IMG/VR virus record: IMGVR_UViG_3300017706_002546
Span: 1-57,212 of that record
DNA from: a virus
Lineage: Duplodnaviria; Caudoviricetes
Direction: 5' to 3' (one strand)
DNA length: 57,212 nucleotides
Positions 5,454-20,813 of the stretch are shown here, in pieces. Within the stretch, counting starts at the first letter, position 1; every line of letters begins with the position of its first letter. The notes beneath the pieces are model-generated. The model did not search any database. It was not told the DNA's origin and saw only the letters and a program-made list of their open reading frames with translations. A program made the translations under genes and the position numbers.

Positions 5454-6056
5454 TTACCACCTCAGAATATCATTAAACATTCTATCAATTTTATCTGATT
5501 GGTTAAAAAATTTATCTAAATCTTTTCTTTGAATCTTATGTTCTTTTAGCATGAAAGCACCAGGTGTGGAAGGCTCAGAGACCATGTCAAAGCAAATTAA
5601 TTGAAAATCATCTTGGACAATCGAGTTGCCTCCTTTTGAAACAGTTGATCCTACACCTCTCGAACTGATACCGAGTGTAACTCCGCTTTCTATTAATGAT
5701 TGAATTATTTTCCCGCTAGGTGTATCAAGTATCTCAATCCTACCGTAAACATCGTCGTTTTGCATGTATGCCTCTCTAACAATATGAGAAACATTTTTCA
5801 ACTCAACAACAGAAGAGTCTGGATGGTCGCATTCGCCTAGCGCTCTATTTTCTTTAATGAGCTTTTGGTAGTTCATAACTTCTCTCTCAAGAATTGTTTT
5901 AGGGTATATTCTACCATTTTGGTTTAGTGTGTCTGCCCTTTGAATGATTCCTGATAGCATTATTTTTCCATCATATTGCTCTTTTGACTCTTTAATTAGT
6001 GAAGGCGAACATTTAATAGGTGTCCACTCTCTTAAAACTTGTATTTTTTCAGACAT
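5454..6056 (-). CDS. gp21: Prohead core protease, T4 gp21-like
   Basis: NQNGRIYP, ALGECDHP, VSHIV, ILDTPSG, LGISSRGVGS and FDMVSEPSTPGA motifs. Confidence 0.93.
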   Translation of the reverse strand: MSEKIQVLREWTPIKCSPSLIKESKEQYDGKIMLSGIIQRADTLNQNGRIYPKTILEREVMNYQKLIKENRALGECDHPDSSVVELKNVSHIVREAYMQNDDVYGRIEILDTPSGKIIQSLIESGVTLGISSRGVGSTVSKGGNSIVQDDFQLICFDMVSEPSTPGAFMLKEHKIQRKDLDKFFNQSDKIDRMFNDILRW

Positions 6057-6895
6057 TATATCCCCTTGTTGATTTCTTGAATTAATTTTGTCAACGATAA
6101 AAATTTAACGACATTGTTATCGTTAATTTGGTCAACACTAACTTCATTAATTTTTTGACGTACAGTGTCAACTTTTTTTAATAAAAATTTATTATCAGAT
6201 TTATCTTCAAAATTGTCCAAGCTTTGTAATGCTTGCAATTTCTTTTTTGTAAAAAACTCTTTTAAAATTTCTTGATTTTTATCTGAATAAAAAACATAGT
6301 TTTCAATTATTCTTTTTTGATCAGAAGTTAATCCGTCGACGTACTTCTTGTTAAATTTTTCTGTCATAATTTTTAAAACAAGCCTATCACTGTGTGATAT
6401 GTCAATTTTTTTCTCAGGTTCAGTAATATTCTCTTTAAGCATAATTTGACCTATTTTTGTTTCAAACTCTACTAACTTTTTAATGTCAGGAGACTGCTTT
6501 TTCCACTCATTAATTGCCATTTGAATTGTGCCTAAGTCTCTGTAATTTTTAATATTAGAGTAATAGAAGTCTTTGCTTAAATTATAATTAATGTCTCTTA
6601 TCAACTTTGACTTTTCTTTGTCAACTACTAAAAAGTCTATATTGTTCCTTACAGCGTGCTTAGCCTCAGTTAAAATTGATGCGACCACATGAGTATTTGT
6701 TACTTTTGTTTGGGCAATTGCATTAAAAAGACGAAATTCTTTATAGATTTCATTTTTTTTGTTAAGGTGGCGCTCAATAAGTTTTGTTGCTTTTTTAGCT
6801 TCGCGCTTATTACCTTCAATGAGATTTTTACTAATGTAATTAAGTAGCAGCTCATAAATTATTCCGATATTTCTTTTTTTATTGTGCTTCGTCAT
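6056..6895 (-). CDS. Conserved hypothetical protein between portal and protease
   Basis: 279 aa; KHNKKRNIGIIYELL N-terminus; AGGAG SD; coupled to the protease gene. Confidence 0.7.
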   Translation of the reverse strand: MTKHNKKRNIGIIYELLLNYISKNLIEGNKREAKKATKLIERHLNKKNEIYKEFRLFNAIAQTKVTNTHVVASILTEAKHAVRNNIDFLVVDKEKSKLIRDINYNLSKDFYYSNIKNYRDLGTIQMAINEWKKQSPDIKKLVEFETKIGQIMLKENITEPEKKIDISHSDRLVLKIMTEKFNKKYVDGLTSDQKRIIENYVFYSDKNQEILKEFFTKKKLQALQSLDNFEDKSDNKFLLKKVDTVRQKINEVSVDQINDNNVVKFLSLTKLIQEINKGI

Positions 6896-8903
6896 TTTCT
6901 TCTCCTGATGAATTATCTTTGCTCTCAGAAATTAATACAGATTTAACCATTCTACTCATATCATCACCATGTCTCGTCTGCAAACGTTCTAGAGTCGATT
7001 TCATTCGCTGATCAATACTTGCATTATAAACTATCTGTGAATCTAAATATTCGTCAACATTAAAATCTTCTTCTAAAGTTAAATCTTTTGATGACGGAAC
7101 AGAAGGCATGGTAGAATTTATTGATCTTAAAGATACGCTTTTGTTTAAATCATACTTATGCCTTTCTAATCCTGACACACTATCTTTTTTTCTTGTTTTA
7201 CCTAAATTGTTATTTACGCCTGTCGAATTGTAATTAACTTTTCCTACCCTGTCGTCTTCGTAATCTTCTGAATCTTCTTCTAAGACTTCTGAATTTAGTT
7301 CTATTAACTTTTGAACTGTGATTGGGTAATTTTCATCTTCTATTGACTGAGTCTCTGATAGTCCTGGTAAATCAATACCGCCTAAATTTTGATCAGCGCC
7401 AGGAGATGGCCCGCCTGGTGGACCACCTAAACCAGTTATCCCGCCTGAAAATACTGGAGGGCCACCGGACGGATTTTCAGGTCCTTCAAGAGGCGCAAGT
7501 TGCGTAGACTCAATTTCTAAATCAGATAATTTATCAGACTTGAGGCCTTTCTTGATTGATTTAAGGTCATCGTCAGATAGTCTTAAAATATTTTTTTGGA
7601 CCCAAGATCTATCAACAAGCCCAGCAGTTGATAAAGCCTTAGACGCGGCATCAAATCTTTCATTAACAAGTTGCAGTTTTTGTTGCTGTGCAATTGTTGA
7701 GGGATTTGATAACATTAATTTAAAATCTAATAAATCTTCATCGCTAAATCCATTACAGTAAAGATGAACAATCGCGATCTTATTCATTTCTGCGAGAACT
7801 GTCCTTTGTATTCTTGCGATTGTCCTACTAAATCTGATGTCTTCTTGTGATAATGTAGCTTTAGCTCCTAATCCCTCATCATAACCTAAGTAAGCTTTTG
7901 GAATTTTAAGTGCTGCAAACAATTTCTTTTGAATGTATTCCACATCACTTGTTTCGCCTTGAATTGTTTCTCCGCCTAAGGTTTCAATCTTTGTTCCAGT
8001 ATCACCGCCTCGAACAGGAACAAAATAGTCCTCATCAATTGAGAGTGGATTGTATCTTAAGTCAACTCTACCTGTTTGTTTATCAACAATTGATGATCTC
8101 TTTAGTGATGTTTGAGCTTGCTCCATATAGTTTGCAACATCTTCAGGCGGTACATTACCGACATCAATATAAAAAACTCTGCGCCCAGGAGCTCTAACAA
8201 CTCTATGAACTAACATTGCATCTTCTAATAAAATCATTTGCCTCCAGATCCTTCTCGCTGGTTCCAGAACAGATGAACCGTATGGTAAAAATGCATCATT
8301 TCCTAAAAGTCTCATGTGAGAAATTTGCCAATTTTCCAATACTTTGTTACCTTGAGTTACCCACCTGAAGCGAACAGCCATCGGATCTTTAGGGTCAAAG
8401 CCTTCTTCTCTTTCAATTTCAGAGATTGGTAAGGGATAGGCATTAATGACTCCATACTTAGGATGAACATCATTAAATAGAAAATGATCGCCGTATTTAA
8501 CTAAGTTTCTTACCCATGATGACATATTAAATTCAACATTAAGTGTATCATAAAACAGCTCTGTTAAAATCTCTTTTATTTTAGGATTCTCTGAATAAAT
8601 ATGAAGCGTTTTGCCAGACTCATCAGCTGCGACAGATTCTTCGGAATATATATCAAGTGCGCTGGCTATCTCTGGAGTATATTCCATCTCAGAAAAGTCA
8701 GAGTATCTTGCCATTCGATCATATGTACCGTAAGCAGACATTGCATTGCTATACACTTGTGACTGATTTTTTCTAAACGATTCAAAAGCTGATGCTGTGT
8801 ACTTGTCATCAGCTTGTAAAACGTTTCTCTTAATTACAGGCCCGCTTCTAAAAAGTCGTGTAAGCCTTTTAAATAAATTTCTGCTACTATTTTTTTCTGC
8901 CAT
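6879..8903 (-). CDS. gp20: Portal protein, T4 gp20-like, with a long C-terminal extension
   Basis: PEIASALDIYSEE, LLEDAMLVHRVVRAPGRRVFYIDVGN, EDYFVPVRG, ALKIPKAYL and EDIRFSRTI motifs. Confidence 0.94.
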   Translation of the reverse strand: MAEKNSSRNLFKRLTRLFRSGPVIKRNVLQADDKYTASAFESFRKNQSQVYSNAMSAYGTYDRMARYSDFSEMEYTPEIASALDIYSEESVAADESGKTLHIYSENPKIKEILTELFYDTLNVEFNMSSWVRNLVKYGDHFLFNDVHPKYGVINAYPLPISEIEREEGFDPKDPMAVRFRWVTQGNKVLENWQISHMRLLGNDAFLPYGSSVLEPARRIWRQMILLEDAMLVHRVVRAPGRRVFYIDVGNVPPEDVANYMEQAQTSLKRSSIVDKQTGRVDLRYNPLSIDEDYFVPVRGGDTGTKIETLGGETIQGETSDVEYIQKKLFAALKIPKAYLGYDEGLGAKATLSQEDIRFSRTIARIQRTVLAEMNKIAIVHLYCNGFSDEDLLDFKLMLSNPSTIAQQQKLQLVNERFDAASKALSTAGLVDRSWVQKNILRLSDDDLKSIKKGLKSDKLSDLEIESTQLAPLEGPENPSGGPPVFSGGITGLGGPPGGPSPGADQNLGGIDLPGLSETQSIEDENYPITVQKLIELNSEVLEEDSEDYEDDRVGKVNYNSTGVNNNLGKTRKKDSVSGLERHKYDLNKSVSLRSINSTMPSVPSSKDLTLEEDFNVDEYLDSQIVYNASIDQRMKSTLERLQTRHGDDMSRMVKSVLISESKDNSSGEENDEAQ

Positions 8904-8915
8904 TATTCTTCCTTA

Positions 8916-10529
8916 CTAAAGGATCCACCTAAAGTCATTGTCTATTTTACTCTGATTTTTTGTATTTTTAATATCTGTGTTAAATAAATTTCTAGAGTCT
9001 CTGTTTTGTTTTGTGAGACTTGAATAGACACCTATCGGGTTAAAAACAGCACCAGGTGTGTCGTCGTATGTCTTTGAGCTGTGTGCCATTCCTTTTAACA
9101 TCTGATCGTTAAGGAGCTTTGATGTTTTACTATGATCTCCTGAAGCATCAAATAACCACGAACCGATTGCTAGGCTCATGACTAAGTCATCATTATATCC
9201 TCTTTTTGCTCCGGCTTTACCTGAAGATGAAACAGAAAAAACTTTAAGTTCTTCATAGAATCGTGAGGAATAAGAGAGTAATGTTTTATTTCGCAGTACC
9301 TCTTCAAGTTTTGCGAGAATTGTGCTTTTTGTTTTGCCGTTTGTATTAAAACCGACGTTATCAGCAGAGTTACTAGGTGTATAATTACCTATAAAAACAT
9401 CCTTTGACTTTTTTCTGTACATTCTGGGATAATCTAGATCTAAAAGCTTTAATATTGTTGCGTATCCGTAGCTGTTATTTTCAGGGCATATTAATGCCTT
9501 ATTGTACTTTTTACCATAGTGTGAGAGAAGTTCAGCAAATTTATCCGGTCTAATCTTTCCTTTATATTCTGCAACAACTTCAGACTCATCTACATCTATG
9601 ATGTGAAAAGTTGAATAGTCCTTAGCATCTCCTCTTGCTACGTCAGCAGAGATAATGTAACTATGAGAAGAAAGCGGGTGTTTCCAAATCCAGACGCACA
9701 TATCATTTCCTTCACGCATCAAAGGCTTTCTAACATTTTGTCTCACCCATTCGACTGTGTTGTCGTCAAGAAAAGACTCTCCTGACAGTGCAAAGTCACA
9801 CAAAAATTCTTGTGAGATTTGTCTTTTTGACATGTTTGACGTCATGTTGTCAAACCAAGCTTGATCATACTCAGGATTGTCAAACCACATAATCTTAATT
9901 GCGTTAAACTCGTTAAGTCCAGCTTCAGCGTCAGTATAAAGCTTATGATACTGTCCGCCTACACCGTTTGGAGTCGAAAGTATTATAGCCCTACCACCTG
10001 TTGACAAAGTCGGGTAAATACCTGTCCAGATAGTATCAAAATTTCTAACAAAAGCAGCTTCATCAACAATCAATAAAGAAAGAGCTTCTGAACGTCCAGC
10101 GTCTTCAGAAGTTGGAATTGCTTTGATTTGCGAGCCATGATCAAATACAATTTCTTGCTTATTATTTGAAACCATGTTAGGTAAAATAAGCCATTTTGGC
10201 AATGATCTAATCATTGACTTTACTTTGACAATAAAATTTTGTGCAACTTTAAGCTTTGTTGCAATAATCAATATACTTTGTTCTCTCTTAAATAGTGCTA
10301 ACCAAGTTGCGTAAGCAGCAGAAAGCGTTGACAAGCCTTGCTGTCGTGACTTAAGTACGATATTAAATCTGTTGCCTCGAAAGTCATTAATGCAATCTTT
10401 TTGAAAGTCATACATTTTAAACGGTATTAGACCACGTGTAGGATGCTGTATCTTGACATATGTTTCAAAAAAATAGTTTGGATCCTTTCCGCACTTGATT
10501 ATCTCTTGCACTTGAGCTCTTGAAGCCAT
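8916..10529 (-). CDS. terL: Terminase large subunit (gp17-like)
   Basis: Deviant Walker A KSRQQGLST, Walker B LLIVDEAAF, coupling motif STPNG, nuclease ADVARG and NDDLVMS; adjacent to portal. Confidence 0.94.
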   Translation of the reverse strand: MASRAQVQEIIKCGKDPNYFFETYVKIQHPTRGLIPFKMYDFQKDCINDFRGNRFNIVLKSRQQGLSTLSAAYATWLALFKREQSILIIATKLKVAQNFIVKVKSMIRSLPKWLILPNMVSNNKQEIVFDHGSQIKAIPTSEDAGRSEALSLLIVDEAAFVRNFDTIWTGIYPTLSTGGRAIILSTPNGVGGQYHKLYTDAEAGLNEFNAIKIMWFDNPEYDQAWFDNMTSNMSKRQISQEFLCDFALSGESFLDDNTVEWVRQNVRKPLMREGNDMCVWIWKHPLSSHSYIISADVARGDAKDYSTFHIIDVDESEVVAEYKGKIRPDKFAELLSHYGKKYNKALICPENNSYGYATILKLLDLDYPRMYRKKSKDVFIGNYTPSNSADNVGFNTNGKTKSTILAKLEEVLRNKTLLSYSSRFYEELKVFSVSSSGKAGAKRGYNDDLVMSLAIGSWLFDASGDHSKTSKLLNDQMLKGMAHSSKTYDDTPGAVFNPIGVYSSLTKQNRDSRNLFNTDIKNTKNQSKIDNDFRWIL

Positions 10530-11002: not shown

Positions 11003-11253
11003 TTTATCTCCTCTGAGTTTAGCTTTTGCTTTAATAATATATAATCACGTAATTTAGTTTTTTCAGGACGCCACCCATTTTTCCAATCTACTCTTCTAGA
11101 TTCAGCAAATGTTAAGTAGCAGTCGTAACAACAATCATATTCTTTGCTTTTTTCAAAATCTTTCTGGGATAGCAATGGATAGCTACACAAGTCGCAATAA
11201 AATTTTTCATTTAGACTTCCATTAACTATCTTAATTTCACGGATAATAGACAT
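10993..11253 (-). CDS. Small Cys-rich (probably Zn-binding) protein; start revised to 11253
   Basis: CDLC...CCYDC and WKNGWRP; ATG 11253 overlaps the end of the SbcDC gene. Confidence 0.65.
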   Translation of the reverse strand: MSIIREIKIVNGSLNEKFYCDLCSYPLLSQKDFEKSKEYDCCYDCYLTFAESRRVDWKNGWRPEKTKLRDYILLKQKLNSEEIKWD

Positions 11254-14200
11254 ATGAATCGACACCTTTTCTTTGTATATCAATCGTATTATCAACAATA
11301 TCTTTTATCTGGTCGATGTGAGATATTATCACAATATTTCTAAAGTATTTCTTTAACGATTGAAGTAGTTTACCACAAGATTCTAAGTTTGTTTCATCTA
11401 AAGCACCAAAACCTTCGTCAATCATAAGTATGTTTGTCTTAGGAAGAGTAGAGACATTAATTAGAGCGACTCTAATTGCCAAAGATGCCATCATCTTTTC
11501 CATGCCTGAACCTAACTCCACAATTCTTTTGCTATCCCCGTAATTAATGTATATATCCATCGCATTGCTTTCCAGATCTGCTTCTAGCTCAATTGTAAAA
11601 CCGACAATTCCTTTTAAGATTTTTGATATTTCTTTGTTGATATGAGGTAGCATTGAGTGGATTATTTGAACAGGTATTCCTCTACTTGAAGTTGCCTGTA
11701 TAAATAAATCATATATTTTCAAGTCTTTACTTAATATTTGATATTCTTTCTTTTGGCTAATCAAGATACCTAATTCAGCTTTAACTTTTGCTAAAGCTGT
11801 AATTAACTTTGTTTGTTCTTCGTTTAAGTGCTTAATTTCTCTCTTGATCTTGTCGACACGACTTTCAAGAATTTTGTACGTATCAGACTTGTCTTGATTT
11901 TCATAAAGTGCTAATAAAGACTCGTACTTTTCTTTTAAGTTAGGAAGTTTTTGCCTATTATTTTCTATATCTTTCTCACAAGAGTTAATTCTGACTTTAC
12001 TCTCAGAAATTTCATTAACCATCTGGGATCTTTTTATTACAACTGTGTTGTATTTCTCAATTTGCTCTTCGTAATCTACCTTGTTTAATTTTCTAAAAGC
12101 TACTTGTAGATCATCGATTTTTACTCTAAGCGAGTGTATTTTATCCTGCTGTTTTTCTAAATTTAGCTTGTTTTTGTGAGAGTTTTTTATAAACTTGCAT
12201 TTCGGAAATTTATCTCCACAAGGAACTTCGCTTAAGATACTAACTGACTTTTTAATTGTGTTAAGTTTGGAATTTTCTATTTTTAAATCAGACTTAAAAC
12301 CAATAATAATTCTTTCAATTTCTTTAACAGCATCTCTTTTTTCTTTAATGTCGTCCAAATTGAAACTATCAATAAAAGTCTCAATCTTTTGTAATTTTTG
12401 ATTTTTGTCAAATATCTCTTCATTTATTTTTTCAAGACTTAAAACGCTATTTTTAATTAGATTGCTAACACTTTTGTATTTTTCTCTTGACGTACTAAGA
12501 TCTGACTTAGTGACGTGGTCAATGTTTGTATTTTGGTGCAAATTTTTGACAGCTTCTTCATATAGTTTCCTTAAGCGAATCTCTTCTTTTTTATTACCAT
12601 CAATCTTTTCCTGGTTAGACTGTTCTTTATTCTTTGAATTTGATATTTCTTTATCCCAGTCGAGCTTTTTAAATGTTCCTATTTTTGACTTTAGCGTACT
12701 TGACTCTTTTTTTGCGTACTCATTAAGTTTGTCAAATACAGTCAAATCTAAAAAGTTAGATAAGATATTTTTTCTTGAAGTTGCTTTCTCTTTAATAAAC
12801 GTATTCATTTCGCCTTGTGAAGCTAAGCTTGTCATCATAAAAGATTCAACGTCGCCCAGTTTAGAGCGTATTATTTTTTCTGTTTCTCGTCTTTGTTCAT
12901 CTGTCAAATCTTCAATAACTTCTCCAGACTTATTAAGCTTGTAAAACTTAAGCGTTGTTGGAGCCCAAATTCCTTTCTTTGTTTGTTTTTTCACTGTCTG
13001 GCGAAATATTCTATACGGAACACCGTTTATAGTAATGTCAATTTCTGCCTTACAATTGTTGCGCCTTGTATTTACTATATGGAGGTTTTTAATACTACCC
13101 CTATCTGACGTATTAAAGAGCGAGTATGCAATTGTTCCAATTATTGATGATTTTCCTCTTGCATTTTGACCAAAAATTCCAGTAATCCCAGGTAAGTTTT
13201 CAAAATTTACCAAATTGTCTTCCCTGTAAGAAAAAGTATTTGAAAACTTGATTTTATTAATTGACCATTTTACATTTCTAACGTCATGATCTTTGTCTGT
13301 AATTTCTGACAGTGATCGATCAATCAATTCTTTGATTTGTGTTTTTTCTTCTTTTAACAATCCCTGGTTTTTGTAATAGTCATTAATTAATTCGTAATGT
13401 TTAGCTGGGTCTCTTAAATCAAGCTCGTTCTGAATTGACTCAGTTTTAAGAGTCTCAGATGAAAATTTAGATTCAATTTTAAACACAACTTCTGAAGCTA
13501 ATTTTTGCTTTTGGAGTATTTTCTGTATTTGTTTCGAATCTGCTTGACTTATATAGTTATCTGCTCTAATTCTAAATTTTGAGAGATTTGGGTATTCTTT
13601 GCATTTTGCAACTGTTTTTTTAACAGAGCCTTGCCAGTCGATTGTTACAAACGGATATGCATTTTTGACTGAATGAAAAGATACATCAAAATTATTTTTT
13701 GAACGAATGTCCCAAAACAAAAAACCTTTTTCACCATCTTCTCCAAAGTTTTGCTGAATTGTACTACCTGAGTATGCAATTGTTTTTTTCTCGTTTAAAA
13801 ACTGCATTTTATGAATATCACCTAACATTGCAAAATCATATGACTTAAATAAGTCAATATTATCTTCACCTTCTAGCTGCCAATCAACGTCAGTTAAACT
13901 ACCTCTAATAGCTCCGTGATAAAGACCAATGCTAATGTTTTTAGCATTTGGTTTTGCTTTAAACCAATTTTCTTCATCAAAGCAAGAAAGGACACACCAC
14001 TCAAAACCTGGCGCAAATTCGTAAGTACCTGACTTTTTATATAGAAAAATATTTGGGTTGTTTAAAGCGTTTATTATTGGTGTAATTGCATCTTGTCTGT
14101 CTTTATTTAGTATTAAACCGTCGTGGTTACCGAGAATGACGTGGGTTGGTGCTATTTTTGCTAACTCATTAAACCACCAACATAGACATTGAATTAACTC

Positions 14201-14365
14201 TGGCGATATTCCTTGGGTTTTAGAATGGACAATATCGCCACCTAAATAAATAATATCAGGCTGCAACCTTGTTGCTTTTTCAAACATATCTTTAAAAGCC
14301 AAAATATATTCTTCGTGGCGAGACAAACCTCTCCAATGAATATCGGCAATGTGCAATATTTTCAT
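11237..14365 (-). CDS. Fused SbcD(Mre11/gp47)-SbcC(Rad50/gp46) nuclease-ATPase
   Basis: Metallophosphoesterase motifs ADIH, GGD, GNHD, YHG and GDIH; Walker A GQNARGKSS; long coiled coil with central Cys pair; Walker B/D-loop IDEGFGALD; H-loop IISH. Confidence 0.92.
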   Translation of the reverse strand: MKILHIADIHWRGLSRHEEYILAFKDMFEKATRLQPDIIYLGGDIVHSKTQGISPELIQCLCWWFNELAKIAPTHVILGNHDGLILNKDRQDAITPIINALNNPNIFLYKKSGTYEFAPGFEWCVLSCFDEENWFKAKPNAKNISIGLYHGAIRGSLTDVDWQLEGEDNIDLFKSYDFAMLGDIHKMQFLNEKKTIAYSGSTIQQNFGEDGEKGFLFWDIRSKNNFDVSFHSVKNAYPFVTIDWQGSVKKTVAKCKEYPNLSKFRIRADNYISQADSKQIQKILQKQKLASEVVFKIESKFSSETLKTESIQNELDLRDPAKHYELINDYYKNQGLLKEEKTQIKELIDRSLSEITDKDHDVRNVKWSINKIKFSNTFSYREDNLVNFENLPGITGIFGQNARGKSSIIGTIAYSLFNTSDRGSIKNLHIVNTRRNNCKAEIDITINGVPYRIFRQTVKKQTKKGIWAPTTLKFYKLNKSGEVIEDLTDEQRRETEKIIRSKLGDVESFMMTSLASQGEMNTFIKEKATSRKNILSNFLDLTVFDKLNEYAKKESSTLKSKIGTFKKLDWDKEISNSKNKEQSNQEKIDGNKKEEIRLRKLYEEAVKNLHQNTNIDHVTKSDLSTSREKYKSVSNLIKNSVLSLEKINEEIFDKNQKLQKIETFIDSFNLDDIKEKRDAVKEIERIIIGFKSDLKIENSKLNTIKKSVSILSEVPCGDKFPKCKFIKNSHKNKLNLEKQQDKIHSLRVKIDDLQVAFRKLNKVDYEEQIEKYNTVVIKRSQMVNEISESKVRINSCEKDIENNRQKLPNLKEKYESLLALYENQDKSDTYKILESRVDKIKREIKHLNEEQTKLITALAKVKAELGILISQKKEYQILSKDLKIYDLFIQATSSRGIPVQIIHSMLPHINKEISKILKGIVGFTIELEADLESNAMDIYINYGDSKRIVELGSGMEKMMASLAIRVALINVSTLPKTNILMIDEGFGALDETNLESCGKLLQSLKKYFRNIVIISHIDQIKDIVDNTIDIQRKGVDSYVYYP

Positions 14366-14375: not shown

Positions 14376-15695
14376 TTATTTTAAGCTCATTTCTACAACT
14401 GAGTCGTGTTTATCAGGAGTAAAAGCAAGTTTCCTACCAGGACATAATACCCAGCATCTTTTAGTTTTACAAAGTGGAGGCTTAGGAGCTTCACCATCTG
14501 TGAATATAATGTAACCATCGTAATCAGCTTTGATTTTTCTATGAAATAGTTCAACTGACTCAAAACTAGTCCCACCCGATCTTGTTCTATATGGCTTACT
14601 TATTTTCTTGTTTCTTTTCCAAATATATTTGGATTTATCATCAACAGTTGTGTCAAAATGAAATATTGTGAATGTTGTTCTTTTTGCTAAGTCATTGAGT
14701 GTACTGAAAAAGAGCATAAGTTCAGCATTAGAAACAGATCCACTTTGATCGATATACACAGCAATATTTGAAGTTCTGCCAATCTTTCTACCTGGATGGA
14801 TATACGGGTATTTCCTATTAATCTTTTTAAATGTTCTGCTTTTATTGGCTCTTTGTTTTGTTCCGCAAAAGTAGCGCAATACTGTTTTCCAGTTAACTGT
14901 TTTTATTATTGACGACTTAAGTTTTTCTCTTGTTGGGCTAGAACAATTGCCCCAACCTCTATTCTCTTCAGCACGCTTTACAGCTTCTTCTAGTATTTCA
15001 TTGATTTTTGCGTTAACATAGTCTTCATCACCTTCTGTCAAATCGTCATCAAAGTGATGATCGAATCCGATTCCACCTTTGCCTTGGCAGGTTCCTTCTC
15101 CACCTTCTTTACACTCTCCAGACATTTCGCTTGGCGACGGAGACATTAATTCATTAATAGCATCAACTATATCATCGTTCTGTCTCAGTTGTTCCATATA
15201 CCATTCGGAAGTTTTATCACGAGGTAAAGAGGCAATAAAGTCAGAAAGCTTTTTTCTTTTTTCTTTAAACTCTTCAGGTAGAGATGCTGTCGCTTCTGTC
15301 TCTTTAAAAGCCTCACCTGGGATAAGCCCACCATCAGGTAGCTCTTTTTTAGGAATTGTGCTGTTAATTGCTAAATCAGTTGCTATATTCCAAACCAAAT
15401 GAGGGGTTTGTTTTCTAGACGAAATATGTTTATAAATAATATGATAACACTCATGCTTGAGCAATCCAAAAATTTGTAAAGTTGTTAGTGTTGCCAAAAA
15501 GTCTGGATTGTAATAGAGGACAATACTGCTGCCATCAAACCCAACGCCTGCTGTGGGTATTGAATTTGTTTCTACTTTTCGAAGAGACCTAATTATATCA
15601 GCAAAAAACGGTTCAACAAAAAGAAACTTAAAGAGAACTTCATCAAATTTTTCTTTGCTATAGCTATAAACTTTAAATTCTGTCATTAATTTCAC
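14376..15695 (-). CDS. HExxH metallopeptidase-like plus vWA domain protein (DUF2201 type)
   Basis: HECYH, WNIATDLAIN, MIDAS DQSGS, GGT and FTDG. Confidence 0.88.
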   Translation of the reverse strand: MKLMTEFKVYSYSKEKFDEVLFKFLFVEPFFADIIRSLRKVETNSIPTAGVGFDGSSIVLYYNPDFLATLTTLQIFGLLKHECYHIIYKHISSRKQTPHLVWNIATDLAINSTIPKKELPDGGLIPGEAFKETEATASLPEEFKEKRKKLSDFIASLPRDKTSEWYMEQLRQNDDIVDAINELMSPSPSEMSGECKEGGEGTCQGKGGIGFDHHFDDDLTEGDEDYVNAKINEILEEAVKRAEENRGWGNCSSPTREKLKSSIIKTVNWKTVLRYFCGTKQRANKSRTFKKINRKYPYIHPGRKIGRTSNIAVYIDQSGSVSNAELMLFFSTLNDLAKRTTFTIFHFDTTVDDKSKYIWKRNKKISKPYRTRSGGTSFESVELFHRKIKADYDGYIIFTDGEAPKPPLCKTKRCWVLCPGRKLAFTPDKHDSVVEMSLK

Positions 15696-16753
15696 CCATT
15701 GATAGTTGCGTTAACTTTTAATTGAACTTTTTTACCGATTAACTTATGAAAGAACCTAATATTGTCAACATGCTTTGTGTCTAGTATTAGATACATAAAG
15801 TTGACTAGCATTTCATCTGAGCATTTCTCAGCAAGCTTACAAGCTCTTTGAACCTGGTGAAATTCTAAGTCTTTCTTTTTTGCTAATGTTGCAATTTGCT
15901 TGAACAAGCTATTTTTTTTATCGTTAGATAGATTATCGATTAGCTTAGTAATTAAGCTCTCCTTACTGTACTTATCTAAAACGTCAGTTGCTGAAAAGCT
16001 TGTGTTGTAGTCTTTAAGAAAACTGGCAAAAGCAGTTGCTGTTGCCTCGCCAATAAAGCCTTTTGCAACAGAGAGGAGCAAAGAGTTATAATTGTCGCCA
16101 AGCATATTCATTGGTTTCATATTTGCATATGACAAACTCTGAGAAAGCCTGTGCCACGAAGCAGGATTAGGATAGACAACCCCTGGCGCAAACTCACCTG
16201 TGTGTCGAAGATGAGCAGGAAAACGCTCAATATACTCTATCAGTACATCATCAATTTCTTCTGATTTATGAGCCCATGCTAACCAATCAGAAGTCGTCGG
16301 ATTTAGATCCGACACATAAAATCTTCTAAGTAGAGCCGGATCCATTTCAGTAACTTGATAATCTGATCCTTCATTGACTGCTACATAAACTCGTGTTTCA
16401 GGGTGGAGGTGATTTCCATTTAACTCTCTATCCAAAACTAGCTGAAAAGCACATTGCTGAACTTCAACTGTTGCTCTATTTAACTCATCTAAAAATAAAA
16501 CAACAGGTTCGTTGCATGCACGAACAATCCAATCAACTGGAGCGAATCTTGTCACACTATCTATCAACTCTGGTAAACCAACAATATCACCTTCTGTCAT
16601 ATATGCGAGGCGCTTATCAAGAACTGGGTAGTTAAGTTTTTTAGCAATTTGGTGAACAATATGAGACTTACCAATTCCAGTAGGCCCTTTTGCAAGGACT
16701 GCGATATGAGGTGGTAAAGAAGATACCACATTGATGAATGTTTTAATATCCAT
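15692..16753 (-). CDS. MoxR-like AAA+ ATPase
   Basis: Walker A GPTGIGKS, Walker B LFLDELNR, MDPALLRRF; ATGA-coupled to the vWA gene. Confidence 0.9.
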   Translation of the reverse strand: MDIKTFINVVSSLPPHIAVLAKGPTGIGKSHIVHQIAKKLNYPVLDKRLAYMTEGDIVGLPELIDSVTRFAPVDWIVRACNEPVVLFLDELNRATVEVQQCAFQLVLDRELNGNHLHPETRVYVAVNEGSDYQVTEMDPALLRRFYVSDLNPTTSDWLAWAHKSEEIDDVLIEYIERFPAHLRHTGEFAPGVVYPNPASWHRLSQSLSYANMKPMNMLGDNYNSLLLSVAKGFIGEATATAFASFLKDYNTSFSATDVLDKYSKESLITKLIDNLSNDKKNSLFKQIATLAKKKDLEFHQVQRACKLAEKCSDEMLVNFMYLILDTKHVDNIRFFHKLIGKKVQLKVNATING

Positions 16754-16812: not shown

Positions 16813-17286
16813 TTAACTAATTTTTTTAATACTCTTTGTGTGGTACCAGTTTCTTCCAGAAGAAGAAACGATTAAAGACTGATGACCATTCATATCTGAT
16901 CCGCACTCTTCAACTTGTAAAACGATACCAAACTTTTCTTCTGGTCCGTGACTAAATGAGACTAAGTCACCGCACTCTACATTCCAACTAATCTTTGACT
17001 TTTTTACTGATGACAAATTTGCAGATCTCTTAATTTGCTTTTTTGTTACTTTCGTCTTCTTATTACTATGATGTTCAATCATTGCTGGCGTTATATCTTT
17101 TGGTTTAAAACCCTTGCTTATAAGAGATTTAACAACTTCGCTACTCATATCAATATTAGGGTTATTAAAATCTTCTGCTATCTCTTCAGTATTTTTTTCT
17201 TTAAGCTTTTCAACTTCTCTATCATGCTTGAATTTTCGAGCACTTTGCTTAGCTGCTTTAAGAGCTGTTTTTGATAGCTTTTTCAT
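16813..17286 (-). CDS. Basic hypothetical protein with a possible C-terminal KOW/SH3-like domain
   Basis: GAGGT SD before ATG 17286 (alternative start 17298); C-terminal VECGDLVSF..KFGIVLQV. Confidence 0.65.
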   Translation of the reverse strand: MKKLSKTALKAAKQSARKFKHDREVEKLKEKNTEEIAEDFNNPNIDMSSEVVKSLISKGFKPKDITPAMIEHHSNKKTKVTKKQIKRSANLSSVKKSKISWNVECGDLVSFSHGPEEKFGIVLQVEECGSDMNGHQSLIVSSSGRNWYHTKSIKKIS

Positions 17287-17314
17287 TATTAACCTCATGT
17301 TTGTTTATGTTTTT

Positions 17315-17343
17315 ATTATAACATGTAATAAACAATATTGCAT
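17315..17343 (-). promoter_or_regulatory. Sigma70-like early promoter
   Basis: ATGCAA-N17-TATAAT with a TGn extension. Confidence 0.6.
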
Positions 17344-18626
17344 TAAATGAACTTTTTAATTTTTTTAAAGTTTGTATCCATCAAACTAGTTAAATTTGTG
17401 ATATAATCTTCACCTATCATATCATTTGTTTCTTTAAAATTAAAATCAAAATCTGATAATAACATTACCCTGCCTGATCTTCCATTTCCATCACAAAAAG
17501 GGTGAATCAATTCATAAACAACGTGTTTACTCCATGGATCTAGATTTAAATTAAAGAAGTTTTTAAGGTTGTCATATATCTCATACGGTTCAGAGTAAGG
17601 TACACCATTAGGTGAATTGTGTGCGTAGTTTCTGATTTCACCTGGGTTGCCTTTGTCCAAGCATCCGGCCATAAAACTATGAATAAACTTAGCTTTGTGT
17701 GGGTTGTCAATTTTACCACACTTAAAGCATGCAACCATACAGTCTACCTGGGATCGTAAATGATTGTTTTTTGTCATGTATTCAGTAGGATATCCTGACA
17801 TCAACATCCTAGCTGATTCTTTGCAATCATCGTATCTGACTTTGTTTTTCTCTATGCCGTTAGTCCTGTATAGAAAATCAGACATGTCTGTTATTAAGTT
17901 TTCAACTGGATCATTATCATATATCTCTTGCGCTTTTTCTAAGCAGTGCTTAGAAAATAATTTGTAGTCTTTGTTCTTAAGGCTTTTGCTAAAATTAGTT
18001 TTATCCTCTTTTAAAAACGAAGAAGCTAGTGATTCACCGACTAGCCTGCCATATTGCACATCTGTTGGATAATGAACAGCATTTTCTATTCGAGATTGCC
18101 CAATAAGCGAAGCTAGTGTTTGCAAGTCTTGCTGTATTTCCGGAACATGATGTGATACAATATCGCACAAAAAGTAAGCAATTGCGGTGTGACCTGACGG
18201 GTAGCTTGACGATTTTTTATATTTTACATCTAATTCATGACGATTATCTATATGCTCAATTGGTCGCAATCTACCATTTTTAATTTTAAGTTTTAGAACA
18301 ATATTGTCAACATCCTTTAGTATATCTTCAATCTTTTTCCAGTCAATCTTTGTTATATTCTCTTGTTTGCAGTAATCTTTAAAAACACTTTCTACTGATT
18401 TGTCACTATCTCTGAGAAATGAAGTGGACAAACATGGCTGGTAATGACATCTTTCAACCTCAGACATGTCTTCATCAAATTCTTTGCTGCCTTCTCTGGG
18501 GTAATCCATGTGAGGAATTGTGTCAAATACGTTTTCGTCAAAGTATCTTAATCTTCTACTTAGGCGATCGTCATACTTACCTTTTTCACCCTTTGTTTCT
18601 TTAAATAGACATAAAATCGATTTCAT
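17343..18626 (-). CDS. PAP2-family phosphatase / Fic-domain fusion protein
   Basis: PAP2 motifs KIKNGRLRP (Kx6RP), PSGH and SRIENAVHYPTD (SRx5Hx3D); Fic motif HPFCDGNGRSGR; TAATG-coupled start at 18626. Confidence 0.88.
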   Translation of the reverse strand: MKSILCLFKETKGEKGKYDDRLSRRLRYFDENVFDTIPHMDYPREGSKEFDEDMSEVERCHYQPCLSTSFLRDSDKSVESVFKDYCKQENITKIDWKKIEDILKDVDNIVLKLKIKNGRLRPIEHIDNRHELDVKYKKSSSYPSGHTAIAYFLCDIVSHHVPEIQQDLQTLASLIGQSRIENAVHYPTDVQYGRLVGESLASSFLKEDKTNFSKSLKNKDYKLFSKHCLEKAQEIYDNDPVENLITDMSDFLYRTNGIEKNKVRYDDCKESARMLMSGYPTEYMTKNNHLRSQVDCMVACFKCGKIDNPHKAKFIHSFMAGCLDKGNPGEIRNYAHNSPNGVPYSEPYEIYDNLKNFFNLNLDPWSKHVVYELIHPFCDGNGRSGRVMLLSDFDFNFKETNDMIGEDYITNLTSLMDTNFKKIKKFI

Positions 18627-19249
18627 TAGCACTCATCATCATAAAAGTCATAATCTAATGAGTGATATACTTCGGATATGTCATCAGATATTTGTGCAAT
18701 CTTTGTGCGCTGCCAGTCATCTAATTCATAACCGTCTGGAATCATTTGTAAAAGTTTTTTTGCATATTTTGCGACTTTATACAGTGAAGGCTTAGCCATG
18801 TAATTGTTGTGCTTGTGATGATGCATTTTATCATCTTCAATTGCAGCTACCTCATAGCCTGCATCGAATGCTTGGTCAGGTGTAATGTTTGTGTTATTCA
18901 GATTGTTATAATCGCTGGTACTATGATTATTAGCAGGTCCGCAACTACTGCAACTTCCTTCGCTTACCACGCCTTCTTCCATATAACCACACTCACTGCA
19001 CTCACCCTCGTAAGTCATTCCACCACACTGCTCACAAGCTCCTGTTTGTCCGCCGCCAAAATCATCATAGCTATCACTTTGCTTCACCATCGTTAGATTA
19101 TGTGGAGATCTTGCATTAGGTCTAAAACCTGTGTCTCTGTATGAATCTGCTTGCGCAGAGCCTTTTGTGATAAGTGCTTCTTCACCTACCATCCTTGAAA
19201 TCTCTTGCATAATTAAATTGCGAAGCTCAGAATTTGTTAATTTGCTCAT
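18626..19249 (-). CDS. Hypothetical protein with Cys clusters and a His run; putative internal head protein
   Basis: CEQC..CSEC..CSSC, HHHKH, N-terminal KLTNSELRNLIMQE; GAGGAG SD. Confidence 0.7.
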   Translation of the reverse strand: MSKLTNSELRNLIMQEISRMVGEEALITKGSAQADSYRDTGFRPNARSPHNLTMVKQSDSYDDFGGGQTGACEQCGGMTYEGECSECGYMEEGVVSEGSCSSCGPANNHSTSDYNNLNNTNITPDQAFDAGYEVAAIEDDKMHHHKHNNYMAKPSLYKVAKYAKKLLQMIPDGYELDDWQRTKIAQISDDISEVYHSLDYDFYDDEC

Positions 19250-19258: not shown

Positions 19259-20227
19259 TCAAAATATCGACCCAGAGGCGATACTCTGTATTAAATATGT
19301 CATTCGATCAGTTTGTTCATACAGTTTAGCACTCTTAATGTAAAATTGTGCTTCTTCTTTTGACATGTCTCCGAAATCGCTTCCCTCATGCTTTGATAAT
19401 TTGATTTCGTTTCCATAAGAGTTTAAGTTTTTTGCTACCTCTAAAGACTTTTTCTGTGCATCCGGATCTAAGCATAAAATAACATCACTATTTTCAATGA
19501 CAATTTTTCGAAAGAGTGCATGCTTTTCATCAATCCAGCTGCCTAACATCGGAATTGCGTTGTCACCCGCTTTTATTGCATCAAATATACCTTCAACAAG
19601 AACAACAGGTTTTTGCCAGTCAACATTATATTCGTTAAAGATAATCTCAGATCTTTTATGATCACAATTTCGGTATTTAATTTTCTGTGCTTTATCGTAC
19701 GTTCGACTTAGGTAGTAATTTAACTTAAGATCTTCATCATGCGATGAAAAAATTACTCGATTTATAAAATCTTTTTCGTTGCTTATGCCTATTTTGTATT
19801 TTAGCAAGTCATTATATTCTAGACCTCTTTCTTTTAAGTACTTTTTTGCTATTTTTGCCTTAGTAGAGTTTGATTCTGCTAATAAGGCGAAATCATCAGG
19901 TAATCTTAAAACAATCTCTTCTTTAGATTCTTTTACACCGTTAAACTCAAATATCTCATAAATCTCAGCTATTGTCTTTTTTGATGCATTTGTGTTCTTT
20001 CTAACAAATTGCCCGATATTTCGACCTTTCGATTCGCAAACCCAACAATGATATATACCTTTACCTAAGTCAATAGAAAGTTTTTTCTTGCTGGAGCTGT
20101 TCTTTGCGTTTAATTTGCAAACGGGACAAACAACTGATATGTTTGTCCCGGCTTTCGCTAATTTGCTTTTTCCAAAGGCTGCTTCTAGTATGCTGATTTT
20201 TTTACTGTTTGTTGAAATATTACTCAT
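19259..20227 (-). CDS. DnaG-type DNA primase (Zn finger plus Toprim); start revised to 20227
   Basis: CPVC...HCWVC, VLVEGIFDAI, LCLDPDA and DFGD. Confidence 0.88.
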   Translation of the reverse strand: MSNISTNSKKISILEAAFGKSKLAKAGTNISVVCPVCKLNAKNSSSKKKLSIDLGKGIYHCWVCESKGRNIGQFVRKNTNASKKTIAEIYEIFEFNGVKESKEEIVLRLPDDFALLAESNSTKAKIAKKYLKERGLEYNDLLKYKIGISNEKDFINRVIFSSHDEDLKLNYYLSRTYDKAQKIKYRNCDHKRSEIIFNEYNVDWQKPVVLVEGIFDAIKAGDNAIPMLGSWIDEKHALFRKIVIENSDVILCLDPDAQKKSLEVAKNLNSYGNEIKLSKHEGSDFGDMSKEEAQFYIKSAKLYEQTDRMTYLIQSIASGSIF

Positions 20228-20233
20228 ATTTGC

Positions 20234-20262
20234 AATATAACAAAAAGTGTTACTATTTACAT
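20234..20262 (-). promoter_or_regulatory. Sigma70-like promoter, probably giving a leaderless primase mRNA
   Basis: ATGTAA-N17-TATATT with TGn; only 6 nt between the -10 and the ATG, and no SD. Confidence 0.6.
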
Positions 20263-20267
20263 ATTTA

Positions 20268-20813
20268 TTAGAAACCACTAAACAAAATATGTGCTTTTCC
20301 AATCACATATGCATCTGCCATGTCGTAGCACTCATTGCAGAGTCTAACTTGCCCTTTGTTTCTTCCGGATTTTAGCACTTTTGTGGGAAAATTTTGATCT
20401 GGCTCTTGCTTAGCGACCCATTCAAAAACTTGCTCTTTTGTTGTCTTTGACGACTTTCGATCTACCTTGATTTCGTTTATTCTTCTCGCTGTATTAACAT
20501 TAATACTTTTTGGCTCAATACCAAAAATTTCTAAACAAATCCATTGAACAACCCCGTTAAACTGTGCTAATTTCAAAATAGTATTTGCTGAAGATAGACC
20601 CGGCCTGAATGCTTGAAGGTTTTCCTCGACAGCGATAGCTGTGATATCGTATCTATCTTTAATCTTAGATAACTGAGATTTCATTTCTTGAGCTTTTTCA
20701 AAGAATGTTTTATGTTTACTTAGCTTAAACGCTTCTATTTCTCTAAGTTTATCCTCGTTATCGAAAATACAGTATCCGGTGCAGCTTGTTGATATATCTA
20801 GTGCTAAAATCAT
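20268..20813 (-). CDS. RuvC-like Holliday junction resolvase
   Basis: ILALDISTSCTGY, IAVEE and DMADAYVI acidic catalytic pattern. Confidence 0.85.
   Translation of the reverse strand: MILALDISTSCTGYCIFDNEDKLREIEAFKLSKHKTFFEKAQEMKSQLSKIKDRYDITAIAVEENLQAFRPGLSSANTILKLAQFNGVVQWICLEIFGIEPKSINVNTARRINEIKVDRKSSKTTKEQVFEWVAKQEPDQNFPTKVLKSGRNKGQVRLCNECYDMADAYVIGKAHILFSGF

Follow-up and report, generated by a model that had tools for sequence, protein, structure and literature searches.

A PAP2-Fic fusion protein of uncultured marine phages keeps its phosphatase residues more strictly than its Fic motif

Why would a phage encode a phosphatase and a Fic enzyme in one polypeptide? The question arises from a gene on the minus strand of IMG/VR record IMGVR_UViG_3300017706_002546 (Duplodnaviria; Caudoviricetes), of which we analysed a stretch of 57,212 nucleotides, hereafter the window. 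Fic enzymes are well studied in bacterial toxins, in effectors and in the human ER. To our knowledge, almost nothing has been reported about them in lytic phages. Likewise, the class A-type PAP2 phosphatases that we know of are secreted and not cytoplasmic enzymes. The initial annotation described the gene as a fusion with both active sites intact. It suggested a single-chain writer/eraser or host-takeover enzyme.

Architecture of the PAP2-Fic protein

The gene and its features are listed below. Residue numbers follow the 429-aa frame (GTG start) throughout.

17343..18626, minus strand: PAP2-Fic gene, 427 aa from its ATG, stop codon included (ORF list)
17343..18632, minus strand: the same ORF from an alternative, in-frame GTG start at 18632, 429 aa; the ATG lies two codons in
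18591..18626, minus strand: conserved N-terminal peptide, residues 3-14, consensus MxSIxxLFxETK, outside the phosphatase fold
17979..18569, minus strand: PAP2 domain of the class A acid phosphatase type, residues 22-218 (Pfam PF01569, PhoN and fold matches)
18261..18287, minus strand: PAP2 motif 1 (KX6RP), KIKNGRLRP, residues 116-124 (K116, R123, P124), invariant in 40/40
18189..18200, minus strand: PAP2 motif 2, PSGH, residues 145-148, invariant in 40/40 aligned sequences
18060..18095, minus strand: PAP2 motif 3 (SRX5HX3D), SRIENAVHYPTD, residues 180-191 (S180, R181, H187, D191); R181, H187 and D191 invariant
17358..17942, minus strand: Fic domain, residues 231-425, including its N-terminal inhibitory helix (FICD/CdFic fold and profile matches)
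17847..17864, minus strand: inhibitory-helix motif TNGIEK, residues 257-262 (T257, E261; K262 replaces G/N), aligned to the CdFic SNKIEG helix
17628..17645, minus strand: PGEIRN, residues 330-335, aligned to the flap-preceding G-x-x-R segment of CdFic
17469..17504, minus strand: Fic catalytic motif HPFCDGNGRSGR, H377-R388, which fits HxFx(D/E)GNGRxxR

The ATG start at 18626 is supported because the Met that it encodes is the first residue of all 39 aligned homologues, and because it shares bases with the stop codon (TAA) of the gene upstream, in the sequence TAATG. The N-terminus, MKSILCLFKETKGEKGK, contains no hydrophobic stretch. Its conserved peptide has M3, L9 and F10 invariant or nearly so in 40 sequences. 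Residues 1-20 have a pLDDT of 55-63 in the AlphaFold model, and the phosphatase alignments start at about residue 22.

No transmembrane helix or hydrophobic segment was found in PAP2-Fic with 19-residue Kyte-Doolittle windows, whose highest mean was 0.72. The protein thus reads as soluble, as the initial annotation had it. Class A acid phosphatases are typically secreted or periplasmic and carry an N-terminal signal peptide. PAP2-Fic has no signal peptide and therefore, unlike them, should not be periplasmic. The lack of a hydrophobic segment suggests a cytoplasmic enzyme acting inside the infected cell.

The PAP2 half is recognized by sequence and by fold. PF01569 matches it with E 4.3e-11 (43.1 bits against a cut-off of 27.2) and matches 40/40 aligned family members; PhoN (2akc) is matched by sequence with E 3e-8. 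In the AlphaFold model of the whole protein (pLDDT 90.4, pTM 0.80), residues 22-218 superpose on the class A acid phosphatase 1eoi with Z 18.9 and rmsd 3.2 over 198/222 aligned residues. The structures 8yc1, 2a96, 7f17 and 9qcj match at Z 18.2-18.8, with 8yc1 at Z 18.8. By analogy with class A phosphatases, H187 is expected to be the phosphohistidine nucleophile. In the NCBIfam search, PAP2-Fic had no match near any equivalog cut-off; it scores 29.9 bits against the PhoC equivalog NF045654, whose cut-off is 430. Automatic naming gives 'acid phosphatase (class A)' and K09474.

The initial annotation had also considered a vanadium-dependent haloperoxidase. The active-site motifs are common to both enzyme types, and haloperoxidases give structural matches at Z 13-15. 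However, these enzymes of 410-640 residues align in part, whereas class A phosphatases fit the whole domain over 198/222 residues at Z 18-19. The sequence matches, moreover, are PhoN and PhoC. We consider a haloperoxidase extremely improbable.

The Fic half scores just below the Pfam threshold. With PF02661, the copy in the window reaches 23.4 bits against a cut-off of 24, and the motif segment 370-391 alone is aligned. At E <= 0.01, 37/40 family members match this profile (best 1.3e-10). Fold matches to FICD close the gap. The model (232-425) aligns with chain 201-410 of FICD 9yz5/4u0z at Z 16.0 (VIA-align; FICD range Z 15-16), and Foldseek gives FICD an E of 3e-5. The Fic half also matches CdFic 4x2d at Z 15.6 and SoFic at Z 13.5, and its profile searched against the PDB finds CdFic with E 5.5e-10. 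A PHROGs search returned Fic-motif matches alone, to families without known function.

The catalytic motif lies exactly at the position first annotated, 17469-17504, and its strict form is present in 105/107 homologues of at least 390 aa. It reads GNGR, unlike the Doc-type variant, which is given as HxFx[D/E]GN[G/K]R, with Lys replacing the second Gly, in a passage of PMC2686095.

TNGIEK, which the initial annotation called a degenerate inhibitory helix, appears homologous to the class II Fic helix. In a profile alignment, the Fic half places it on the CdFic 4x2e helix that bears S31 and E35. Stand-alone Fic relatives carry the canonical SNxIEG, and the I and E are invariant in 21/21 sequences, Fic halves and stand-alone relatives counted together. 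About 100 of 105 homologues have [ST]xxxE at the expected spacing. A G or N follows the Glu in just 25/94 regex matches; this position is canonical in the stand-alone relatives. The gating Glu of Fic proteins represses AMPylation and supports deAMPylation, according to a passage of PMC6408439. With E261 intact, AMP-transferase activity is therefore predicted to be low unless the inhibition is relieved. Finally, P330, G331 and R334 of the PGEIRN segment are nearly invariant, and this segment may act as a target-docking flap.

Distribution and genomic setting

The homologue search gave 162 matches, from a set that is metagenomic and redundant at the lineage level. Both motif sets are present in 104/107 homologues of at least 390 aa, and 25 representative clusters (50% identity) span both halves. 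Ten IMG/VR loci have the fused gene, and their contigs measure 24-237 kb. In the ESM Atlas, two clusters (54 and 156 members) consist entirely of viral proteins. Full-length homologues number more than 100, and every one derives from a marine metagenome or a viral contig (Tara, JGI, ENA). Since they come from many independent assemblies, a mis-assembly is ruled out. The ORF, the motifs and the folds of the AlphaFold model all agree with a single chain carrying both motif sets, as annotated.

We also looked for the two halves as separate genes, with an HMM of each half and six-frame ORFs of 160 loci. The Fic HMM matched in 155/160 loci, and both halves were found in 11, all of them fused. For the remaining 149 loci, the PAP2 HMM (E <= 1e-5) found no ORF within about 8 kb of the Fic genes. 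GTDB cellular genomes contain at least 91 confirmed relatives (best E 3e-8), and none of the matches listed covers the PAP2 half. Among cultured phages, tblastn against INPHARED returned seven records with the PAP2 half only, at less than 38% identity, and no fused form. A fold search of BFVD gave no two-domain match; its best matches cover one domain. PF22778 has a precomputed match on 12 homologues that was not reproduced at E <= 0.01. Our literature searches found no paper on a PAP2-Fic protein, in line with the annotated novelty. The text passages matched by term in PMC7824862, PMC4454073 and PMC2686095 do not contain this architecture; Doc is mentioned in passages of the last two. The fusion is thus real, conserved and virus-only among the data searched, and it joins known kinds of enzyme in a new combination. 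The restriction to phages rests on the IMG/VR loci, the viral ESM Atlas clusters and the listed GTDB matches.

The window holds a gp23 capsid gene, a gp20 portal, TerL and an S77 (gp21-like) prohead protease. CheckV estimates a completeness of 70% for a relative of 202 kb and of 77% for one of 237 kb. The fusion is an accessory gene of an uncultured marine phage lineage, whose capsid genes are T4-like and whose genomes measure roughly 300 kb. PAP2-Fic occupies the same slot in 23/29 primase-anchored loci. In the six most distant of them, the primase is joined directly to SbcCD and PAP2-Fic is missing. The neighbours of PAP2-Fic are replication and recombination genes. Two small genes flank it.

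18626..19249, minus strand: upstream gene, 207 aa, whose stop overlaps the PAP2-Fic start
16813..17298, minus strand: downstream gene, 161 aa, weakly conserved, BLAST-detectable in 11/23 loci

The 207-aa protein has a conserved N-terminal helix, a zinc-ribbon-like centre (CxxC...CxxC) and a highly conserved C-terminal region of about 60 aa (alignment A5). BLAST detects its gene in 21/23 loci with PAP2-Fic and in 0/6 loci without it. It misses the gene in locus L168, where this is truncated with the N-terminal helix kept, and likewise in L169. PAP2-Fic is thus inherited with the upstream zinc-ribbon gene, to which it is probably translationally coupled. Neither the 207-aa protein nor the 161-aa downstream protein has a match in Pfam, PHROG or NCBIfam. 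The predicted complex of PAP2-Fic with the 207-aa protein (alignments A1 and A5) scored 0.00 in both runs and is uninformative. Promoter searches gave chance numbers: six occurrences of TATAAATA against 6.4 expected, and 21 sigma-70-like sites against 18.9 expected. Terminator-like sites (5 against 2.3 ± 1.5 expected) gave no usable signal.

This setting bears on how the protein might be delivered. It could travel inside the capsid and enter the cell together with the DNA, so as to act before phage gene expression. T4 internal head proteins are a precedent for this route, which is compatible with any of the chemistries discussed below. The conserved N-terminal peptide outside the fold and the S77 gp21-like prohead protease within the window are consistent with it. 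So are the fusion of one PAP2 relative (P0196) to a phage portal protein and an LFEE element found also in the conserved N-terminus of the scaffold protein. However, the common element is four residues long and its acidic position is not invariant, the portal fusion is one of 15 multi-domain PAP2 partners scanned, and the gene sits among replication and recombination genes. Packaging in the virion is, in our judgement, quite unlikely. As for the N-terminal peptide, capsid targeting was discarded: it rests on the four-residue likeness to the scaffold, with a variable acidic position, and is a lead at most.

Unequal conservation of the two halves

The two active sites are not equally conserved. 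Among 137 family members, the PAP2 catalytic residues (R, H and D of motif 3) are intact in all 137. The strict Fic motif is absent in 21, and 114 members combine two intact sites in a single chain. On a tree made with FastTree only, with the Fic columns included, loss of the Fic motif needs at least three changes; so few were obtained in 0/500 label shuffles. The primase-anchored sample shows the same tendency, with PAP2 intact in 23/23 and Fic in 17/23. In the six decayed Fic copies of this sample, the inhibitory helix and the PGExR segment are missing as well. Because of this pattern, the phosphatase appears to be the indispensable activity. Fic catalysis seems separable from it and would have decayed to a non-catalytic domain in several sub-lineages.

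The initial annotation proposed that the two sites are coupled, for example through the removal of PPi. In such an enzyme, both would act in sequence on one target or reaction. The PAP2 half might strip phosphate from the residue that Fic AMPylates, or it might hydrolyse the PPi released by Fic and so drive AMPylation. The 114 members with both sites intact agree with this idea, as does the pTM of 0.80, which suggests a fixed arrangement of the domains. The structural alignments of the phosphatase extend to a helix of the Fic half (about residues 311-320), and class A acid phosphatases accept PPi. Nevertheless, Fic was lost at least three times with all PAP2 catalytic residues kept. This counts against coupling, because a helper phosphatase should lose constraint once its partner dies. 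The absence of a PAP2 gene within about 8 kb of the Fic genes at 149 other loci also speaks against it. Obligatory coupling is therefore weakened, and a coupled enzyme appears unlikely. The decayed Fic domain is kept at full length. The halves could thus cooperate structurally, which would be compatible with some coupling.

Our preferred reading, which we hold at about even odds, is a soluble two-domain phage effector. It would direct two independent chemistries at host physiology and would not be a strict two-step machine, given an indispensable phosphatase and a separable Fic activity. The N-terminal half would be a PAP2 histidine phosphatase of the class A type without an export signal. By analogy, it would form a phospho-His187 intermediate, with H148 as the acid, and hydrolyse a phosphomonoester, a terminal phosphate or a pyrophosphate. 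The C-terminal half would be a class II, glutamate-gated Fic enzyme that uses an NTP to place AMP or another NMP on a hydroxyl of its protein target. The presence of E261 may mean that it removes AMP instead. Host gyrase is not proposed as a target, because the phage GyrB-like topoisomerase PF00204 is found in 0/4 related records.

The unequal conservation would also fit an auxiliary gene for phosphate scavenging. Here, a non-specific phosphatase would release the phosphate of host metabolites to feed phage DNA synthesis where sea water is poor in phosphorus, and the Fic half would be a regulatory or vestigial add-on. PAP2 is universally conserved and Fic dispensable, all relatives come from marine samples (Tara, JGI, ENA), and the automatic names point the same way. 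However, a cytoplasmic phosphatase without selectivity would also break down the nucleotides on which the phage depends. In most members the gated Fic site is complete and clearly constrained, and the tight linkage to the zinc-ribbon gene has no place in this explanation. It strikes us as quite improbable.

The domain partners of related proteins raise another option, an enzyme of nucleotides or nucleic-acid ends and not a protein modifier. PAP2 would take the terminal phosphate off RNA or DNA ends, or off nucleotides that serve in defence or alarm. Fic would act in the same pathway by binding or transferring a nucleotide, and the purpose would be repair or counter-defence. Of seven multi-domain proteins scanned in the same Fic sub-family, three have a nucleic-acid-end or nucleotide partner: P0162 carries a CCA/poly(A)-polymerase head domain, and P0227 and P0246 carry 2H/LigT/Acb1-like phosphoesterases. 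Fusions of the PAP2 sub-family pair it with NUDIX and a P-loop kinase (P0164), with topoisomerase IB (P0236) or with an HNH nuclease (P0226). Against this, we know of no Fic enzyme that acts on nucleic acids. Most of the multi-domain partners scanned have no recognisable family. Furthermore, the Rnl2-type ligase PF09414 and the AAA_33 kinase PF13671 are each found in 0/4 related records (up to 77% complete). PF09511 was also found in 0/4, and its control had no signal anywhere, so this result is uninformative. We see such an enzyme as a minority option, as unlikely as the coupled one. Among the seven Fic fusions, P0155 carries LRV/HEAT repeats and three have no other family.

A narrower version is more doubtful still, and we regard it as a long shot. 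Fic would transfer or remove a nucleotide on an RNA or nucleotide hydroxyl, and PAP2 would clear a blocking 3'-phosphate or pyrophosphate. Such a module would need no ligase and would deal with damaged or capped tRNA or RNA ends, in repair or against a toxin. The hint comes from the same fusions, of the Fic sub-family to the CCA-adding-enzyme head and 2H phosphoesterases, and of the PAP2 sub-family to NUDIX-kinase, topoisomerase IB and HNH. If true, it would be a new substrate class for Fic enzymes.

To return to the two-domain effector, a compact soluble protein of 427 aa unites PAP2 and Fic, and it is conserved in a lineage of large ocean phages that are abundant and uncultured. What is new here is that the PAP2 residues are universal (137/137) and the Fic motif has decayed in 21. 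The sister clades with a dead Fic site and an intact phosphatase are a natural control, and they make the family a tractable entry point. PAP2-Fic bears on the use of AMPylation, or of its removal, by phages for host takeover. It also bears on the substrate of an intracellular PAP2 phosphatase and on the role of the co-inherited zinc-ribbon protein. If the target is a component of defence or translation, PAP2-Fic would add a new type of phage effector.

Comparison with known systems

The PAP2 half shares its three motifs, with typical spacing, with the class A acid phosphatases of Salmonella (PhoN, 2akc/2a96), Escherichia blattae (1d2t/1eoi), PhoC (9qcj) and Shigella (8yc1). Their all-helical fold is matched whole (Z 18-19, about 195 of about 220 residues) at an identity of about 19-24%. 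Unlike them, PAP2-Fic is viral, lacks a signal peptide, begins with an additional conserved peptide and continues into a Fic domain.

The Fic half shares the canonical motif and the N-terminal [ST]xxxE helix with the class II Fic enzymes (human FICD/HYPE, Clostridioides difficile CdFic 4x2c-e and Enterococcus faecalis Fic), and its core matches FICD 201-410 at Z 16. Unlike in these enzymes, a K follows the Glu here, and G/N is found in about a quarter of the fused proteins. Compared with FICD, CdFic and the E. faecalis Fic, PAP2-Fic has no TPR or HTH domains, and its partner is the PAP2 phosphatase.

The bacterial end-healing and sealing enzymes of the Pnkp type (kinase-phosphatase-adenylyltransferase) offer an analogy for the narrower RNA-end version, with a phosphatase and an adenylyl-transfer domain in one chain. 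However, their folds are unrelated to PAP2-Fic: a metallophosphoesterase and a ligase-like domain versus PAP2 and Fic.

Phages also encode other protein-modifying enzymes. T4 Alt, ModA and ModB are ADP-ribosyltransferases, and P1 Doc is a kinase within a toxin-antitoxin pair. The chemistry of Alt and Mod differs from that of PAP2-Fic, Doc has a variant motif, and none of them is fused to a phosphatase. Like them, PAP2-Fic would bring a phage-encoded catalytic domain for post-translational modification, with a plausible host-directed role.

The fused gene and its predicted domains

The sequence, linear and 57,212 bases long, is a whole IMG/VR virus record. Its completeness is estimated at 22%, and every long ORF is on the minus strand. 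The PAP2-Fic ORF, 17343..18632(-), encodes 429 amino acids if begun at GTG. The ATG at 18626, two codons further on and chosen in the initial annotation, is the better start. The N-termini of 39/39 aligned homologues coincide with its Met, and it shares bases with the TAA stop of the upstream 207-aa gene (TAATG). All the motifs claimed by the initial annotation are found where it placed them (numbering of the 429-aa frame):

Residues 116-124: PAP2 motif KX6RP
Residues 145-148: PAP2 motif PSGH
Residues 180-191: PAP2 motif SRX5HX3D
Residues 257-262: inhibitory-helix motif TNGIEK
Residues 377-388 (window 17469-17504): Fic motif HPFCDGNGRSGR

The Pfam PAP2 match exceeds its cut-off (E 4.3e-11). 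The Fic match reaches 23.4 bits against a cut-off of 24, with an alignment confined to the motif. The N-terminal half has its best solved sequence relatives among class A acid phosphatases: PhoN, PhoC and the E. blattae enzyme (E 3e-8 to 1e-5). The maximum 19-residue Kyte-Doolittle mean is 0.72. It means that the protein lacks a membrane helix, as first proposed, and also a signal peptide.

We modelled the protein with AlphaFold2 from a 40-sequence alignment (mean pLDDT 90.4, pTM 0.80). Foldseek matched the model to FICD (E 3e-5) and to class A acid phosphatases (TM 0.58-0.66 on target), and VIA-align resolved it into two separate domains. Residues ~22-218 match the near-whole class A phosphatase 1eoi (Z 18.9, rmsd 3.2, 198/222 residues). 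Haloperoxidase chemistry in this half is a rival reading; vanadium haloperoxidases match the domain in part only (Z 13-15). Residues ~231-425 match the Fic core of FICD (chain residues 201-410) with Z 16, and CdFic with Z 15.6.

The Fic-half profile was built from 21 sequences (the window, ten related loci and ten stand-alone relatives). It pairs FLYRTNGIEK of the window with the CdFic helix FLYHSNKIEG, which bears S31 and E35. The Ile and Glu of this helix are invariant (21/21), and stand-alone Fic relatives present the canonical SNxIEG. Among 105 fused homologues having a Fic motif, 94 carry [ST][NCL]xxE at the right distance. The remaining 11 show TSxIE or SAEIE (six), Asp for Glu (one) or no motif (four). 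The residue following Glu is G or N in just 25 of the 94 matches. So, the helix first described as degenerate is a true homologue, with the gating Glu kept and the capping residue drifted. These sequences suggest that the Fic half is of the glutamate-gated (class II) type.

Distribution and gene neighbourhood

A word-indexed search found 162 relatives. Among the best 120 of these, 107 have at least 390 amino acids; of these 107, the full set of PAP2 motifs occurs in 106 and the strict Fic motif in 105, with 104 having the two together. An exhaustive profile search gave 25 clusters (50% identity) covering both halves. The relatives come from Tara, JGI, ENA, Logan and NCBI metagenome assemblies. 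Their sole names are "acid phosphatase (class A)", "Fic family protein", "hypothetical protein" and K09474. Two PAP2 plus Fic clusters of the ESM Atlas (54 and 156 members) are 100% viral, one of them auto-named "Fic/DOC family/PAP2 superfamily domain-containing protein". In IMG/VR, the full fused gene is present at ten loci, on contigs of 24-237 kb. Thus, mis-assembly, a stop between the domains and always-split homologues are excluded; the fused architecture is established and so is, among the matches listed, its phage-only distribution. When one genome of each prokaryotic species was scanned, the matches listed were all weak and confined to the Fic half (best E 3e-8). Cultured phages in INPHARED gave weak PAP2-half matches only, and a BFVD fold search found no two-domain match.

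Other products encoded in the window are:

6-1955 (-): gp23-type capsid protein
5454-6056: S77 gp21-type prohead protease
6879-8903: gp20-type portal
8916-10529: large terminase
11237-14365 (-): single-chain SbcCD-like nuclease
14376-15695 (-): DUF2201 VWA/metallopeptidase protein
15692-16753 (-): AAA_5 ATPase
19259-20302: primase
20268-20813: RuvC-like resolvase

The closest cultured terminases, from Microcystis phage Mel-JY01 and Flavobacterium phage immuto, are just 41-43% identical. For related records of 202 and 237 kb, the completeness ratings are 70% and 77%, which suggests genomes near 300 kb. The capsid protein has 649 residues, of which 370-640 form the best-scoring stretch against the Gp23 profile; the long region N-terminal to it may be an additional domain or a propeptide. 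The SbcCD-like protein is one 1042-aa chain, with an N-terminal calcineurin-like (Mre11/SbcD-type) phosphoesterase and an SbcC/Rad50-like region. This single-chain fusion is kept in all relatives examined (40-66% identity); in T4, the SbcC/SbcD-type counterparts are two separate genes. A long run of large ORFs (20813-50520 (-), up to 1619 aa) is nearly without PHROG matches. Nine of them were scanned, and one gave a weak match, to a family of unknown function. Presumably, they are tail or baseplate proteins of an uncultured lineage.

The order primase, 207-aa gene, PAP2-Fic, (161-aa gene), AAA_5, VWA, SbcCD, ..., terminase is kept in 10/10 fused-gene loci. We also anchored 29 loci on the primase, so that they were not chosen by the fused gene itself. 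A PAP2-containing gene occupies the conserved slot in 23. In the other six, whose primases are the most divergent (31-40% identity), the primase is joined directly to SbcCD. The AAA_5/VWA pair (14376-16753 (-)), a MoxR-like ATPase and a DUF2201 metallopeptidase/VWA protein, adjoins the fused gene. It is present in 18/23 loci with a PAP2-containing gene and missing in five, so its linkage is not obligatory. These five retain only the first two block genes, the 207-aa gene and PAP2-Fic. The block of the 207-aa gene, PAP2-Fic, the 161-aa gene, AAA_5 and VWA (window 16813-19249) is wholly missing in L183-L185 and L187-L189, and looks like a modular accessory insertion between primase and SbcCD.

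Three parts of the 207-aa protein (18626-19249 (-)) are conserved: a helix at the N-terminus, the cysteines of CxxC...CxxC, which are invariant, and a C-terminal stretch of ~60 residues, where conservation is very high. No family match was found for it. BLAST detects its gene in 21/23 PAP2-containing loci against 0/6 without the fused gene; therefore, PAP2-Fic and this zinc-ribbon gene behave as a two-gene accessory unit. L168, one of the two BLAST-negative loci, has a shorter upstream gene with the same N-terminal helix.

Similar-looking charged-hydrophobic N-termini (type L-R/K-x-h-I-x-x-E) appear in the 207-aa protein and in a small head-module protein (4928-5452). The type also seems to occur in stand-alone Fic and stand-alone PAP2 relatives; it was seen in L012, L013, P0163, P0166, P0193, P0204, P0205, P0206 and P0231. 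It may serve phages with a gp21-type protease as a common signal for targeting or processing. The putative scaffold protein (1990-3468 (-)), between protease and capsid gene, has a conserved start MSK(L/I)FEEA, as in L190-L194. This resembles the conserved LFxE element of the PAP2-Fic N-terminus, with only four residues common.

Unequal conservation of the two halves

In the primase-anchored sample, the PAP2 motifs are intact in 23/23 loci and the strict Fic motif in only 17/23. Six loci (L170, L175, L176, L179, L181 and L186) have replaced the catalytic His with A, S or K. They have also lost GNGR, and the inhibitory helix and PGExR segment are deleted. Their C-terminal halves keep their length and still score 78-94 bits against the Fic-half profile.

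We examined 137 family members with 350 or more amino acids (131 database proteins and the six Fic-decayed loci). All but two show the strict three-motif PAP2 pattern (135/137). In these two, the S/T of motif 3 is replaced by A and R, H and D are retained, so the PAP2 catalytic residues are present in 137/137. On the other hand, the strict Fic motif is absent in 21/137. On a FastTree tree (138 rows), the Fic-motif state must change three times or more, and three changes are required even when only well-supported branches count; the tree took in the Fic columns, so it tends to group decayed forms and to undercount losses. These patterns place the phosphatase half under universal constraint. Fic catalysis has been abandoned repeatedly without loss of the Fic domain.

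Proposed activity and relation to known enzymes

The initial annotation proposed a writer/eraser or host-takeover enzyme, for example one that alters a host target and removes PPi, phospho-marks or nucleotide defence signals. Under sequential coupling of the two halves, a phosphatase serving Fic alone, by PPi removal or residue preparation, should relax once Fic dies. PAP2 does not, which argues against this rival. For the same reason, we favour an intracellular phage effector with two separable activities in one chain. The PAP2 half would be a phosphomonoesterase. The Fic half would be a gated NMP-transferase or deAMPylase acting on a protein target. In addition, the Fic fold would serve in structure or docking, and its retention after decay would thereby be explained. 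PMC6408439 describes the conserved glutamate as repressing AMPylation in many FIC proteins and, in mammalian FICD, as also supporting deAMPylation of BiP. Either direction might thus be possible for PAP2-Fic. Phosphate scavenging and packaging into the virion are further rival readings.

Sub-families of both halves also occur alone (~200-250 aa, without signal peptides) and in other fusions:

Fic-type, P0162: poly(A)/CCA polymerase head domain
Fic-type, P0227 and P0246: 2H/LigT/Acb1-like phosphoesterases
Fic-type, P0155: LRV/HEAT repeats
PAP2-type, P0164: NUDIX plus P-loop kinase
PAP2-type, P0236: topoisomerase IB
PAP2-type, P0226: HNH nuclease
PAP2-type, P0196: phage portal protein

No other recognisable family was found in 3/7 scanned Fic partners, nor in most scanned PAP2 partners. 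Another rival reading is a role on nucleotides or nucleic-acid ends. Its most novel form, improbable but suggested by the leaning of the recognised partners towards nucleic acids, would have Fic acting on an RNA or nucleotide hydroxyl and PAP2 clearing end phosphates. However, neither an Rnl2-type ligase nor an AAA_33 kinase was found in related phage records.

Neither half reaches an NCBIfam equivalog cut-off. We found no description of the combination in the literature searched, and the public database names for PAP2-Fic are automatic only. The PAP2 half is a divergent relative of the class A acid phosphatases and, unlike them, predicted to be non-secreted. The Fic half would join the class II Fic enzymes.
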